From: Syntrophorhabdaceae bacterium | Lineage (GTDB): Bacteria; Desulfobacterota; Syntrophorhabdia; Syntrophorhabdales; Syntrophorhabdaceae | Assembly (NCBI GenBank): GCA_963666485.2 | Contig: CAXXUO010000002.1 | Span: 288,001-352,000, forward strand | Direction: 5' to 3' | DNA: 64,000 nt | In this document: positions 21,001 to 51,000 of the stretch, piece after piece | Position numbering within the stretch: the stretch's first letter is position 1 | Layout: each line of letters begins with the position of its first letter | Made by a program: the position numbers

Positions 21001-24000
21001 GATTTCGCCCAGTATATTGGCGGGCACAGGACCCCCCAGGCGGCATTCCGTTATTTTTTTACAAAGGAGTTCAATGCAATGGCCGGTCTGACCGCGGCGA
21101 CGGAATGGTCGGGAGCCGACGGGATCAACGGGTACAATGACGGTTATGCTCGAAGCGGCTGGCCCGGGCTCATGGGCGAGATAGCGTACACGACGGACGG
21201 GTGCGGCAAGATCGGACCGAACAACCTGAAATTTGCCATTGGCGGGTACTTCGGGAAAGAGAAACAGATATGGCCCCCGTACAAATCAACGCGCAGCGAA
21301 AAAGGGTACCAGGACGATGAAGTCGATGCATGGCTCACCGCCTTCCGGTACAGCATTCCCCTCGTCCCGGAAAAACAGGGCAATAAGGCAATGTCCCTTC
21401 TCCTGAACGGCAATTTCTTTTACGGCCAGAACGTGGCAGGCAATAACTGGATGATGCCCGGCGGCCCGAGCAATGGCTCATACTGGCGTAATTTCCGCAC
21501 CATGGAAGCTGCTGCCCCGGTGGTATGGGGAGCTTTCGCCCAACTTTCATGGTGGCTGACGGATACGCTGTCGGTCAACGGAATGTACGGGTACCTGAAA
21601 TATAAATATAGCACCATAGCCGAGGACCTGATGCCTGACCATGTCAACATGATGCAGACCTGGGGCGTGAATCTCTTGTGGAACGCCAACGAATCGCTGC
21701 GGTTGGGCCTGCAGTGGATGACGATGTTCACGGGGTACAACAGGCCGTACTATTTCCCGGCAATAGGCTTCAAGGACTCCGGGGACCGCACGGGAAAGAT
21801 CGACCAGTACAGGCTGGCAGCGTGGTATTTCTTCTAAGACATTTCCCGGCTCACATGGGTCCCTTATAGTCAGGGGCCCATTTAACCCTGCCGGCCGACA
21901 ATCGTTCGCTTGTTTTCCCGGGCGGCATATACTACAATTCTAGCATTCACGGGATGACACGAGAAGGTTCAACGAAGAGTAAAGCCAGAACAGCACAGGT
22001 CTTAAGGCTCCTGCACGCATTGCTTTCAGATATCGCCGGGCCGGAGATCAGGCGGCTTGTCACCGCCGCCCTTTTCATTTGTCTCTCCACTTTTGGTTCC
22101 ATCGCCGGGCCTTTCCTCATAAAAGAGATCATAGATGTCGCGCTTCCGGCGAGGGATGTCCGCCTCCTCGGCATTTACTCGGTACTCCTGCTCCTGACGA
22201 ATGCGGTTGCGCTCGTTTTCTGGTCCATCCATTCCCGTTTCGCCATACGCTCATCCGAAAGGATCTTTCTGAAATTCCGCGAAAAGCTTGTTTCCGCCGT
22301 CTTGCGGAAGAGGCTCGATTTCTTCTCCCGGTACGGGTCGGGGGATATCCTTACGAGAGTTAATAACGACCTCGACTTTATCAGCCTTTTTCTCCATCAG
22401 ACGGTGCTGCGCTGCCTGGCGTTTTCCGTTTTCTCGATCGTCCTCCTGGCCGGGCTCATTATCTGGAACTGGCGGCTGGGCCTCACATTCCTGCTGACCC
22501 TTCCCTTTCTCCAGTTCTACGCCTGGAAAACATACGAGCCCGCGGCGAAACATTTCAGGTTATCCAAGGAGAAACTTTCATCGCAGAGCGAGACCCTTCT
22601 CGATATCCTCGCCGGCGTCCCTGAACTGAGGTTCTACCAGCAGGGCCGGGAGGCGGTCCGGCGCTTCCGGCGCAACGCGGAGGCATATACCGAACAAAAT
22701 ATCCGGACGCTCATGATCAGTGATCATTTTTCGAACGGGCTCGATTTTCTCGGGGTACTGGTGCGGCTCCTGCCGTTCATCGTCGGCGGCTATCTTATCT
22801 GCCTCGGCTCATCCGACATTACGATAGGCATGCTCGTTGCCTATTTTGTCATATTCTTCCGCCTCGCGCTCCAGATATTCGCCATTTTTCAAGGCATCCT
22901 TGCATCCGCACAGGCGCTGCCCTCATTGCAGCGCCTGAAAGAACTCCTGGATTTTCCCGAAGATACCGAGCCCGAAGAGTTCGGCATCGATGAGGTCCCT
23001 GACGCGACCGATATTGAATTTAACGATGTCTCGTTCGCTTATCCGAACGGTCATCCCGTTTTTACAGGCCTCAACCTCCGTGTCAGCCAGGGAGAAAAGG
23101 TGGCCATCATGGGCCAGAGTGGATCCGGCAAAAGCACGCTCGCGCAGCTGATCACGCGGTTCCTTGCCCCGAGTTCCGGCCATGTGCTTTTCGGAGGCAA
23201 GGATGTCAGATCGTACCCCCTGGCGTTTTACCTGAGCTTTTTCGCCTATGTCCGGCAGGAGGCCCATTTATTCAAGGTCAGTTTCAAGGACAATATCGCG
23301 ATGGGGTGGTACGGGGTCCCCCTGGACCGCATCAAGGAAGCGGCGTCCCTTGTCCGCATGAACGACGTAATCGAGCGATTGCCGATGCACTATGACACCG
23401 TGTATGCCGAGGACGGCACGAATCTTTCCGGCGGGCAGAAACAAAGGATCGCTCTCGCGCGGGCGCTTATCCGGGACCCCCATATCCTGGTCCTCGACGA
23501 ATTCACCTCCGGGCTCGACCCCCAGGTGGAAAAAGAGATACTTGACGACATGTTCGCATTGTTCGAGAAACAGACGATCATATGCATAACCCATAAACAA
23601 TCGGTCGCCGACAGGTTTCAGAGGACCATTACGATCGGCCAGGCCGTGCACTCTCCCATTTCGTGAGATAATGGGACGCAATAATTCATGAGTTCATTGA
23701 GGAGGAATATTACATGATCAAATTGACGCCGGATGAGGTCAGGGAACGTTTCGGGAAATTCTATTATGAATCCTTCCTCACAATAGTGGATAGTGAAAAA
23801 AGTAAGATCGAGATAGTCGAAACCTTCGGCAATTATCCCGGCAGTGCGGAATGGACTGCGATAAACAGGTGCCGGGCAGGAGGAATAATCGAGTCCTATG
23901 AAATATACGGGCAGACATCGTATATCAGGGCCAGGCTGGGCGAATCTCCCGTTCATTTCGGGCCCGCGGATGCCGAGCAGGGCGGACAGGCGCTGCAGGG

Positions 24001-48000: not shown

Positions 48001-51000
48001 AGGATGAAATTGTATTTTTCGATAGCTTCCTCGAAAAGGATATACATGCACGTCGCGTTGTACCCTTTCGCCGTGAGGATATCAGCGGCCTTCTCCGCGC
48101 TGCGTATGCTCCGGTCCGTTACCGCCGACCTGCCGATATCCCCTTTTCTCCCTCCGCCGAGGACCGCGATATTCTCATCGATCCCGAGCCGTCTCATGAG
48201 GTCCGCGCCAAGCTGGCCGAGCCTCACTTTTTCCCTGACCCCCCAGGCGTCATCGATACCGACCGGGGCGAAAAAGAACGGGGTAACATGCGGTGGCTGC
48301 AGTATCGCAAGGCGAAGGAGCTTCCTGATACCGTACTGTTCCTTGAGGGCCTTCATCAAAGGGTTTATGTCAAGGGACCCCCGGACGATGCCTGCCACTT
48401 CCCCTCTTTTGACCATCCCGACGAGTTCTGCCTCGGGGGATTGAGATACGACGTTTTCGATCCCGCCGGCCAGTTTTTCCCGGCTCACGATAACGACACG
48501 GGCGTACCCTAACTCTTGTGCTTTCTCGGCGCTCTCCAGGACCTTCTTTTCGTACCCTTTTTCTGCACCAATGGCGATCCGGGCCCGGGACATCCGTGCC
48601 CGGTCGATGATCAGATCGGTTATCATGGCCACCCCTTTCATTGTCTCGCACCTCATTATTCCCGAATGGGACAAATCATTTAATACAATTAAAGCATATC
48701 TTTTTTCTCATATCAGGCGAGGCACATGAAATCAATACTTATCTACAACCTTATCCAATTGCGGACTACTCACAAGGTACATGCATGCATGATACATTGG
48801 TCCCCAGATAACCTCCGATGCACTTCAAGCCAGTTAAGAAACCGAAAGAGGAGGCGCAATGAAATTCTTCAGAAATCTCTCTCAAACCCAGCTCATTTTC
48901 ATCGGAATGCTCAGCGGAATGTTGATCGGGTTCGCTTTTCCCGGGATTGGCATCAGGCTTGAAGCGGTCGGAATCATTTTCATTCGGCTCGTAAAGTCGA
49001 TCATTATCCCGATCATTTTCGCGACACTGGTCGTGGGGATCGCCAAACATTCGGACCTGAAGGCTGTCGGAAGGATGGGAATCAAATCACTCATATATTT
49101 CGAAGTGATCACGACAGCGGCACTATTTCTCGGCCTGATAGCCGCAAACATAACAAAACCCGGGCTCGGCATTACACTCGGGGCCAACGGCGGTTCGGGG
49201 GCCGGATTGGGTCCCGCGAAAGAAATGAATATGAAAGACATTATTGTTCATATATTTCCTGACAATTTCTTTGAATCGGCGGCCCGCGGCGATATCATGG
49301 AGGTTGTTGTTTTTACAATACTGTTCGCCATAGCGGTGAGCCTCATCGGCGACAAAAAGAAACCCATAATCGAATTCTGCGAATCGCTTTCTGAGGTCAT
49401 GTTCAAGTACACCGCCATCGTGATGCGCTTCGCACCCGCGGGCGTTGGTGCGTCCATCGCTGCGGTCGTGGCAAGCAAAGGGATCAATGTCCTGTTAAAA
49501 CTGTGCCTGCTCATCGCTACGTTCTACGGTGCCGCGATCGTATTTATCTTCGTAATATTGCTCCCCGTAGCCGTCGTCTTCCGGGTACCGATCAGGCAAT
49601 TCCTGGCGGCGGTCAAAGAGCCCGCAATGATCGCGTTTTCAACGTCCAGTTCGGAGGCGGCCCTGCCGAAAGCGATGGAGAACATGGAAGCCCTCGGGGT
49701 GCCAAGGAGAATAGTCTCGTTCGTGATCCCGACGGGGTATAACTTCAACCTTGACGGAACAACGCTTTACCTGGCGCTTGCGTCCCTATTCGTTGCACAG
49801 GCGGCAGGCATGCACGAAAGCCTGGCCCAGCAGCTCGCCATAGGCTTTACCCTGATGCTGACGAGCAAGGGAGCGGCCGGGGTGCCCCGCGCGTCACTTG
49901 TCGTCCTTGCAGGGACACTGTCATCATTTGGCCTGCCGGTCGAGGGTGTGGCGGTAATCCTTGGCATCGACACGATAATGGATATGGGACGAACTGCGAT
50001 CAACGTAACGGGAAATTGCCTGGCGACCGTGATCATTGCAAAATGGGAAGGCGTATTCCGCAACGACACTGACGCTGTACCGGAAGAAATAGTCGCAGAA
50101 ACTCGAGAGGCCTGCGAGGCGCTGGACGGGTAAACCTGCGACGACCCCATCATCATTATCGGTCCACAGGCAACTACAGGATGCAATGACAGACAAGCGT
50201 GGGTGCGCCAAGCGATAATTTGGGCCATACAAGGCACGCATGTGCTGCGGGAAATGAAACAGCGTATTCCGGGTTCGGAAAATAAAACACAAAATTGAAG
50301 CAATCCAAAAACGATCCGGGTCTTCGCTGATTGCGGAGGAGAAATGAATCTATTCGGCCCCCTGCTCAAACGGGAGCATGGCAAAAAACAGCCTTTCATG
50401 CCTCTTGGCCCTTTTGAATTGAGGCTGCCGTTCATACATTACCGGTTCGAGGCAGCCGATTTCACACAGGGCCTCATTATGTGCGCCGTCTGCCTCGGCA
50501 TTATCCCTATATTGATGGATTACCTCGGGATGCCTTTCGAGGTGGCCATCACCATCGTGATATTGAATGGTTTCCTGTATCTCTGGCATGCGCATCTGGG
50601 GGATCCGGTCGTACCGGGCTGGATCACCCCTGCCATACCCCTCCTTCTTTTGTGGCTCAAATCGTTTCCCGAGGGCGTGCCCCGAATGCACGCCCTCATT
50701 GCATTTGAATGCGAACTGGGCGTCATCGCCTTTATCCTCGGGGTGACGGGCCTCGCGAAACGGCTCGTCGATCTCGTCCCGGACGCGCTGAAAGCGGGCA
50801 TATTGCTTGGAGCCGGGGTCGCGGCGGTGCGGCTCGTGTTTGAAACGGGCGGACGCTTCGACAGTTATCCCTGGACCATAACGATCGCGCTCGGCCTGGC
50901 TTTCTATATTCTCTTCTCCAACCATTTCAAGAACCTTCGCACGCGCTATAAATTCCTGGGTTTCGTCTCAAATCTCGGGCTCATACCGCCGATGCTCCTG

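Follow-up and report, generated by a model that had tools for sequence, protein, structure and literature searches.

Genes of the locus

The window (the whole stretch of DNA analyzed here, 64,000 nucleotides) carries two genes of families named after methanogens. The first, mmp11b (23714..24700, + strand), encodes a non-canonical marker-11/DUF1743 protein of 328 aa that matches TIGR03280 with 163 bits (E 8e-48). The second, mtxX (47793..48626, - strand), encodes an MtxX (Mmp4) homologue with a phosphotransacylase fold, recognized by its matches to TIGR03270 (185.2 bits) and to structure 9NZY (E 2e-30) and by its mapped cleft residues. Both family matches had been reported in the first-pass annotation and were reproduced. 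The longest form of the mtxX ORF spans 47793-48641 (-); the start is likely the second ATG at 48626, giving 277 aa, the length of MtxX in the closest homologues, while the ATG at 48641 adds five residues.

An ABC half-transporter with an exporter fold (21954..23666, +; Pfam ABC_membrane and ABC_tran) lies 47 bases upstream of mmp11b, and an RsbW-like ATPase-GNAT fusion (24726..26231, +) lies downstream. Further along are a PAS histidine kinase (split by two assembly errors) with a NarL-type response regulator (29937..31716, -), two APC amino-acid permeases, and a Rossmann-fold reductase of the PF27054 (beta-methylindole reductase C) type (38857..40572, +; Atlas score 0.99). One permease (37114..38832, +) is BcaP/CAT-like, with 482 bits to NF053761 (cut-off 690) and E 3e-121 to 5OQT; the other (31811..33640, +) is 53% identical to it. 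The start of an MFS carrier of the aromatic acid:H+ symporter type (46594..47796, -; TIGR00895 261 bits, cut-off 418.55) overlaps the mtxX stop. A promoter scan gave nothing above chance.

Both genes are real and correctly assembled: bacterial genes surround them on a contig of 669 kb, their GC3 is typical of the genome, and short-read contigs cross 21500-26295, including mmp11b, unbroken. This genome, which is 99% complete, contains no mcrA match, while the mcrA controls match in both methanogens, and a search of it for mmp2 yields at best 57 bits against a cut-off of 365. The earlier claim that the genes work without MCR is supported.

The MtxX homologue

The protein falls 4.8 bits short of the curated TIGR03270 cut-off of 190, which four of six other bacterial-type MtxX proteins tested pass (192-211 bits). 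It is homologous over its whole length to MtxX/methanogen marker 4 (TIGR03270; m15 of Adam et al., 2022; 9NZY, PMC12978539) and keeps the cleft, with 10 of the 11 residues of the solved enzyme identical (R54, R74, R128, R134, N185, R189, L193, D213, S215, R216). The sole change is F188 to Y225, a substitution present in all 19 bacterial-type MtxX rows. The DTSR motif, already noted in the first pass, is located at residues 250-253 with S252 and R253 invariant, and the four cleft arginines are retained. Among Pta/Ptb structures the MtxX profile hits 1YCO, 1R5J, and 1QZT, in line with a Pta fold with the catalytic Ser-Arg, and its top non-MtxX match is 1YCO, a branched-chain phosphotransacylase (E 3.6e-7). 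The paper on the MtxX structure describes a Pta fold in which the catalytic Asp is not conserved, a ligand that is likely acidic and hydrophobic, and a gene that is possibly essential (PMC12978539). In our protein the position of the Pta-type catalytic Asp (Ser +7, an offset taken ungapped) is His259, and at the same ungapped offset this column contains 11 H, 12 E, 3 T, 1 D, and 1 Q in 28 rows. Methanogen MtxX differs in that its host encodes mcrA and in its Phe at 188. The gene neighbors differ as well, being transporters here and mtxAH, uppS or mmp2 in methanogens. A role as Pta replacement was considered and rejected, the catalytic Asp being missing and this genome having its own pta-ackA.

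The Mmp11b protein

The first-pass annotation had taken the other gene for marker 11 proper. This identity was rejected: the 163 bits remain below the TIGR03280 cut-off of 255.8, and the protein groups outside the clade of over-cut-off members. All 27 near relatives tested are equally below the cut-off (155-226 bits). In a quick tree of 91 rows, the 21 over-cut-off TIGR03280 rows all fall outside a separate Mmp11b clade, in which the bacterial copies group with those of Methanocella, Methanomicrobiales, and Methanomassiliicoccales; a careful LG+G4 tree of 43 of the 91 rows supports this clade at 100/99.

Mmp11b consists of an N-terminal domain of about 155 aa and a TiaS-type kinase (TCKD) domain. 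This layout and the invariant DDTD, GAT, KTxNC, and GxIGA motifs are shared with methanogenesis marker protein 11 (TIGR03280; DUF1743/arCOG01116; m17) and place the protein in the wider Mmp11/DUF1743 family. Its N-domain carries the signature E46, N51, R52, R54 and a GGQ insert, whereas canonical Mmp11 has His, Arg, and His. Retained motifs are DDTD at 164-167, T174, K208/T209, and G297/G300.

The predicted structure (pLDDT 90.5) superimposes on TiaS, the tRNA(Ile2) agmatidine synthetase (NF040849; 3AMT), over the 154 residues of the TCKD (VIA Z 22.1, rmsd 1.8). The active-site motif aligns as well, with D164, D165, D167, and T174 corresponding to D8, D9, D11, and T18 of TiaS. Where TiaS has R56, Mmp11b has T210, so that the two nucleotide sites are not the same. 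Mmp11b as TiaS itself was also rejected, since homology stops at TiaS residue ~157, and the agmatine-binding, OB, and zinc-ribbon domains of TiaS (~420 aa) are absent; a new N-terminal domain is present instead, and the match to the TiaS family is 48.8 bits vs 600. For the N-terminal domain modeled alone (pLDDT 92.9), the top VIA score is Z 6.5 over 50 residues and Foldseek returns nothing below E 0.001; this lack of a clear structural match does not demonstrate a new fold. The title of one paper describes TiaS as a ‘dual protein and RNA kinase.’

Distribution and pairing of the two genes

We compared 96 genomes of the class and found four carriers (G001, G002, G006, G466) other than the present genome (G000). 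mtxX occurs in three of 19 congeners and in four of 68 family genomes, which replaces the earlier figure of none in 30, while the count for mmp11 (two of 19 congeners) remained the same. A sample of 400 genomes of the phylum gave no further match for either gene, and neither did plasmids and viral contigs. A GTDB-wide locus scan with a single MtxX protein returned three loci, one of them true, and so did not reproduce the first-pass count of six in seven bacterial loci; the bacterial counts given here come from the class genomes. The best 80 metagenome mtxX loci include no bacterial-type MtxX.

The two genes are adjacent, a few bases apart, in three of the four other carriers (G001, G002, G466). 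They also adjoin in Methanocella-like loci, and in four of the five best metagenome mtxX loci vs none of the other 75 of the best 80 (56 of these extend 1 kb or more upstream). Most methanogens have different genes next to mtxX. Six further MtxX/Mmp11b pairs have both members on equally long contigs. Adjacency in Syntrophus and Syntrophaceae is read from equally long contigs and printed accession numbers. The tree labels of Adam et al. (2022; PMC9635834) show consecutive accessions of both markers in Syntrophorhabdus, Syntrophus, and a Korarchaeon, and both markers recurring in the same genomes, including Ferroglobus, Geoglobus, a Bathyarchaeon, and two Actinobacteria MAGs. The families, regarded in the first pass as confined to methanogens and their kin, were already known outside methanogens.

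The distance of 23 kb between the genes in the window comes from the absence of mmp11 in the slot that precedes mtxX. This slot (48627..48900, -) is homologous to the region before mmp11 in G002 (blastn 76% over 437 bases; alignment). The mmp11b of this slot was lost, and a second one, next to the ABC transporter, has been retained; G002 likewise has a second mmp11b without adjoining mtxX. With dN/dS of 0.05-0.09, both genes are under purifying selection, kept even after their separation. The best explanation is that mmp11b and mtxX form a working two-enzyme module in bacteria.

Origin of the bacterial copies

The closest MtxX homologues are 18 proteins with 62-92% identity, only four of which carry a bacterial name, followed, as in the first pass, by Methanocella at 50-54%. 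In both the MtxX and the Mmp11b tree the bacteria adjoin Methanocella. The window’s protein groups inside archaeal MtxX, where the bacteria join the Methanocella rows at 97/93 and P0076 at 97/98. With canonical Mmp11 as outgroup, the bacteria in the careful tree are three starred nodes deep within archaeal rows; the direction of transfer, previously based on midpoint rooting, is therefore independent of it. Transfer of both genes from archaea to bacteria and their co-inheritance are highly probable from trees and synteny. The donor is best explained as an archaeon in or beside Methanocellales, long ago, and the recipients as anaerobic deltaproteobacteria. The initial claim of an origin from Methanocellales is supported as to a Methanocella-related donor; nesting inside the order is not supported (AU p=0.175 for Methanocellales monophyly).

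The transfer itself is already published. Adam et al. (2022) describe both markers (m15, m17) as transferred from Archaea to Bacteria, include rows of Syntrophorhabdus and Syntrophus, and judge the function of MtxX undeterminable from distribution (PMC9635834, supplement p. 9, Figs S31, S33). Families and direction are the same as ours; neither the donor nor a paralogue, a transporter context or a mechanism is named in these passages, and the pairing of the two genes goes unremarked there.

Transporters accompanying the pair

The bacterial pair travels with the ABC exporter, the MFS carrier, and an amino-acid permease. Close homologues of the exporter occur in the same four of 96 class genomes (14 candidates scored per genome), with a partial copy adjoining mtxX in G006. 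The MFS carrier is found in the same four genomes, unlinked and 4 Mb away in G466, and the APC permease (37114..38832) in five. A related response regulator is present in the G001, G002, and G466 loci. Since the four carriers are related and one island is common to three of them, this co-distribution amounts to about two independent events, not four. Co-inheritance of the pair is supported, but the bacterial unit exceeds the proposed two-gene cassette, its distribution being shared by these three transporters. A Methanocella-like locus has none of the three, which makes them uninformative on the archaeal role. Atlas and PDB searches did not narrow substrate or direction of the ABC transporter.

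The reductase (24 of 96 genomes) and the RsbW-GNAT fusion (37 of 96), used as control genes, were rejected as module members and are island passengers. An apparent permease-kinase fusion in G001 is an antisense shadow frame.

Proposed function and alternative readings

We tentatively propose, as a reading that is plausible but still short of probable, that a TiaS-type kinase and a Pta-fold non-CoA acyltransferase belong to one small-molecule pathway. The N-terminal domain of Mmp11b would hold the small molecule, and the TCKD would use ATP to phosphorylate its carbonyl or carboxyl oxygen. The resulting acyl phosphate would be bound by the MtxX dimer in its arginine-lined cleft, and the acyl group passed to a non-CoA acceptor, most likely an amino acid through its amine. 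Import of this amino acid may fall to the APC permease, and the MFS and ABC carriers may move acid or product. As in AckA/Pta and Buk/Ptb, a phosphorylating enzyme would act beside a Pta-fold enzyme with catalytic Ser-Arg, but here the pair would ligate a small conjugate; the kinase has another fold, and MtxX has no conserved catalytic Asp. We counted the pairing, the TCKD fold, the active-site alignment, the MtxX cleft, dN/dS, and the transporter link for this mechanism, and T210 in place of TiaS R56, the kinship of the carriers, the other mtxX neighbors in most methanogens, and the judgment of Adam et al. (2022) on MtxX function against it. Also in its favor is a wHTH-fused Mmp11 clade, which resembles regulators of small-molecule metabolism that are enzymes too, of the BirA and NadR type.

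MtxX and marker 11 belong to the near-universal proteins of methanogens, and their pairing in Methanocella and bacteria suggests a concrete one-pathway hypothesis. The bacterial copies point to a chemistry useful without MCR and the transporters to a small exchanged molecule, making the pathway testable away from methane formation. A match to these markers is no sign of methanogenesis, least of all a sub-threshold Mmp11b match that databases name TiaS. In the boldest version, which we consider a long shot, the pair would serve a methanogen cofactor pathway as its kinase and its acyl-phosphate:amino-acid transferase (at the extreme, in the last coenzyme B steps). A few syntrophic bacteria would have acquired it and coupled it with an amino-acid importer and two carriers, so as to produce, salvage or trade such a conjugate with methanogen partners.

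An unlikely alternative is that the pair interconverts acid and acyl-CoA as Buk/Ptb do, the acids stemming from amino acids or aromatics, with import of amino acids by the permease and export of acid by the MFS carrier. The 1YCO match and the module's BcaP-like permeases and AAHS-type MFS carrier fit this, as does the result that G002, G006, and G466 show no match to the Pta/Ptb or acetate kinase families. Against it speak the variable column in place of the Pta catalytic Asp, the pta-ackA of the present genome, a genome (G003) that lacks both systems and mtxX too, and butyrate soaking, which gave no binding. TiaS-type enzymes cleave ATP to AMP, which fits biosynthesis, not ATP gain.

Quite improbably, the two proteins could catalyze the late part of the coenzyme B pathway, activating 7-mercaptoheptanoate, ligating it to threonine, and phosphorylating the threonine, with the bacterial island making, salvaging or trading a CoB-like N-acyl-threonine. 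Both families are found in nearly all methanogens, including Methanomassiliicoccales, HdrB-like and PF01837 genes occur in carriers, and the predicted ligand of the cleft is acidic and hydrophobic (PMC12978539). Kaster 2011 names genes for the chain-elongation steps only, and in the literature searched the later steps are without gene assignment. However, the tree labels of Adam et al. (2022) place both families also in lineages that are not known CoB users. The present genome has neither mcrA nor a LEU1_arch match over the cut-off (four matches in frames of 467-614 aa), HdrB matches remain under cut-off, conserved N-domain positions of canonical Mmp11 are changed in Mmp11b, and bacterial-type MtxX has F188Y.

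It is very unlikely that Mmp11b modifies a nucleotide or tRNA like TiaS, with MtxX unrelated and adjacency due to hitchhiking on one transferred fragment. TiaS is the only clear structural relative of Mmp11b, the genes are apart here, and the second mmp11b of G002 has no mtxX alongside; yet Mmp11b stops where the agmatine-binding, OB, and zinc-ribbon parts of TiaS start, both genes are under selection after separation, and they co-occur in distant lineages. Contamination, chimeric assembly or a decaying remnant (genome contamination is 3.75%, the G002 island has many frameshifts, and the genes are rare) is already largely refuted by the contig, neighbors, GC3, and short-read contigs described above, by the four other genomes carrying the genes in related contexts, and by dN/dS <0.1.

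The two marker genes in the genome

The first-pass annotation had read this stretch as an mmp11 and mtxX cassette passed from Methanocellales to bacteria; we found that the genes and their transfer are real but that the description holds in part only. Both open reading frames lie where it had placed them, mmp11 at 23714-24700 (+) and mtxX (marker 4) at 47793-48641 (-), and profile searches scored them at 163 bits (TIGR03280, cut-off 255.8) and 185.2 bits (TIGR03270, cut-off 190), respectively. A genome-wide search of G000, the genome holding the window, returned one full-length copy of each, no match to mcrA and only weak paralogue matches to mmp2. 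The genes share a 669-kb contig and have GC3 values of 0.66 and 0.69 (genome median 0.69), with a pairwise dN/dS of 0.05-0.09 among the bacterial copies. Contigs of the short-read runs X2 and X3 span the mmp11 end (21500-26295) with zero differences, which tests the assembly only, because both runs come from one sample that may be the assembly's own source. The host's nearest named homologues (75-76% identity) are labelled Syntrophorhabdaceae, and from that label we infer a syntrophic lifestyle.

Distribution and pairing

The earlier count of mtxX in 0 of 30 family genomes needs correction, as five of the 96 class genomes carry it (G000, G001, G002, G006, and G466). The mmp11 gene is present in all of these except G006, where the contig, 1,562 bases long, ends within mtxX; a 400-genome phylum sample contained no further carrier of either gene. 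In G001, G002, and G466, mmp11 lies immediately 5' of mtxX. The same holds for four of the five best among the best 80 metagenome mtxX loci (L024, L026, L027, and L028), the fifth (L025) having 110 bases of upstream sequence only, and for none of the other 75, 56 of which have at least 1 kb upstream. L027 and L028 cluster with Methanocella-labelled proteins in the MtxX tree. Six further MtxX/Mmp11 pairs were found on same-size contigs, including Syntrophaceae and Syntrophorhabdaceae records, and the pairwise identities of both proteins correlate across pairs (Spearman 0.71; 21 non-independent pairs).

In G000 the pair is split. The window and contig C16 of G002 are colinear over the stretch that runs from the ABC gene past mtxX, with mmp11 preceding mtxX on C16 and absent after the ABC gene, the reverse of the G000 arrangement. 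The 250 bases 5' of the G000 mtxX align with the region 5' of the G002 mmp11, the synonymous distance between these genomes is 0.89 for mtxX and 3.4 (saturated) for mmp11, and G002 has a second mmp11 adjoining another ABC homologue. The simplest reading would be a duplication of mmp11 followed by reciprocal loss.

A non-canonical Mmp11 clade

All 27 near relatives of the window protein that were tested score 155-226 on TIGR03280, below the cut-off, including proteins of Methanocella paludicola, Methanoregula, Methanospirillum, and Methanomassiliicoccales. Among 40 Mmp11 representatives that are further removed, 21 reach it. In a 91-row quick tree these 21 all fall outside the clade of the window protein, which has 100/99 support in a careful tree of 43 of those rows. 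Residues E46, N51, R52, R54, and GGQ are invariant in this clade, and canonical members differ there. The name ‘marker protein 11’ is right for the family, but score (163), tree and invariant residues place the protein outside the canonical, over-cut-off clade; we call its own clade Mmp11b. For Methanocella and Methanomicrobiales, each entered three times in Fig. S33 of PMC9635834 (Adam, 2022), Mmp11b would be an additional copy, and it may be the sole copy in Methanomassiliicoccales, which have one arCOG01116 entry per genome in PMC4153887.

Origin and direction of transfer

With the root placed on canonical Mmp11, bacterial sequences form a clade (100/100) that joins Methanocella-like rows and one unnamed row (100/99), then Methanomicrobiales (98/93), then Methanomassiliicoccales. 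A grouping of bacteria with Methanomicrobiales, picked after inspection of the quick tree, was rejected (AU p 0.0067). The MtxX tree comprises 45 rows (12 of 19 bacterial-type, 15 named or near rows, and 18 representatives of 77 loci). Here the bacteria (100/99), and with them one unnamed long row, group with Methanocella (97/93), and a ‘Methanocellales archaeon’ row branches outside both (97/98). No row of the sequence sets could be identified as belonging to other Methanobacteria, Methanococci, or Archaeoglobi. The donor therefore lay in or beside Methanocellales: topology tests rejected a grouping of bacteria with Methanosarcinales (p 6e-5) and did not reject a monophyletic Methanocellales that leaves the bacteria out (AU p = 0.175). 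Methanocella adjoins the bacteria in both trees, but the test does not support the narrower reading of a nested origin within Methanocellales.

Later moves of the pair between bacteria are hinted at, because the Mmp11b of G466 (P0136) groups weakly with a Syntrophus copy and not with its own family (90/64), and IS elements flank the G466 pair. An IS1595 transposase lies between the ABC gene and mmp11b (L110:15303-16256) and a DDE transposase after mtxX (L111:787-2268).

Archaea-to-bacteria transfer of these markers is already published (PMC9635834; Adam, 2022). The literature searched, which takes in main-text and supplement passages of that paper and passages of PMC11237513, PMC9081873, PMC7694415, PMC6313347, and PMC11619418, describes neither the pairing nor Mmp11b as a clade nor a transporter module (subscription papers, e.g., Borrel 2019, were outside the search). 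The joint occurrence of the two genes, the Mmp11b paralogue, the region of the archaeal tree that supplied them and the transporters around them in bacteria appear not to have been remarked on before, and together they make two long-standing unknowns testable at once.

Structure and active sites

The Mmp11b model (pLDDT 90.5) matches TiaS over residues 156-317 at Z 22.1 in this prediction. D164, D165, D167, and T174 align to TiaS D8, D9, D11, and T18, which in TiaS bind Mg-ATP, T18 being autophosphorylated. Unlike TiaS, Mmp11b does not conserve R56 and lacks the tRNA- and agmatine-binding parts. A related Mmp11 clade of ~375 aa (P0277, P0293, P0306, P0307, P0315, P0318, P0339, and P0351) carries an N-terminal winged helix-turn-helix, with HTH hits in eight of nine long homologues, and is a candidate enzyme-regulator. 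A stand-alone bacterial protein with the TiaS-type kinase domain (~240 aa; G000:C3:396756-397226 (L128), L022, and L023) has no Mmp11 N-domain and is a separate family; its gene lies between porin-like and amino-acid-kinase-fold genes in G000 and near ABC uptake genes in G041 and G060.

The MtxX structure paper (PMC12978539) singles out 11 cleft residues, and the window protein keeps 10 of them. That paper describes a Pta fold without methyltransferase similarity or catalytic Asp and a probably acidic, hydrophobic ligand; its main text says nothing of MtxX in bacteria or of mmp11 being a neighbor of mtxX.

Transporters and a possible function

Close homologues of the ABC transporter (window 21954; E <= 1e-120) and of the MFS carrier (46594; E <= 1e-100) occur in exactly the four of 96 genomes with Mmp11b, at cut-offs we chose and among kindred, hence non-independent, carriers. 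The APC permease is found in these four and G007, and two other island genes, taken as controls, are far commoner (24/96 and 37/96). G006 has a partial ABC gene directly 3' of mtxX. Physical linkage alone is insufficient for the MFS co-occurrence, because in G466 this gene is ~4 Mb away from the pair. The transporters were recruited in bacteria, since the Methanocella-like locus L027 has none of the ABC, MFS, and APC carriers.

Starting from the observed folds, motifs, pairing, selection and co-distribution, we tentatively favor, at somewhat less than even odds, a scheme in which Mmp11b would form an acyl phosphate, MtxX would pass the acyl group to a non-CoA acceptor, and the permease and carriers would feed and drain the reaction. 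A Buk/Ptb-like role of the pair is improbable: MtxX misses the catalytic Asp, and G000 already has pta-ackA (C6:15420-17578; no match in G002, G003, G006, and G466). Slightly less probable still is a role in the late steps of coenzyme B synthesis, for which the chemistry suits; White's work reportedly places an acyl-phosphate intermediate in these steps. PMC3087415 leaves a gap in the gene assignments of the pathway, but carriers without MCR fit this role poorly and no AksA-type match exceeded its cut-off. Chemistry on tRNA or nucleotides is a little less likely again and shares the remaining weight with reactions not yet conceived.

Other features of the window

A PAS histidine kinase (30587-31716) is split into two open reading frames, probably an assembly error, because the X2 and X3 contigs have one base fewer at 31187 and at 31308. 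At 26290-26470, short tandem units lead into a REP-like inverted repeat (126 blastn rows in the genome), and read depth spikes there. The 571-aa reductase at 38857-40572 is of the PF27054 type (24 of 96 class genomes), for which we know of no role in these anaerobes. A porin-like secreted family without Pfam or NCBIfam match (20524-21837 and 62988-63908) has four genome copies of 55-83% identity. The stretch 48859-54632, divergent from mtxX, encodes a GltP/DctA transporter, a membrane protein of 480 aa that falls in no family, an HpaB-fold protein resembling 4-hydroxybutyryl-CoA dehydratase and a CoA transferase, likely a glutamate/4-hydroxybutyrate route. Immediately left of the island, in a higher-GC stretch, lies a 1,921-aa autotransporter (14361-20126).
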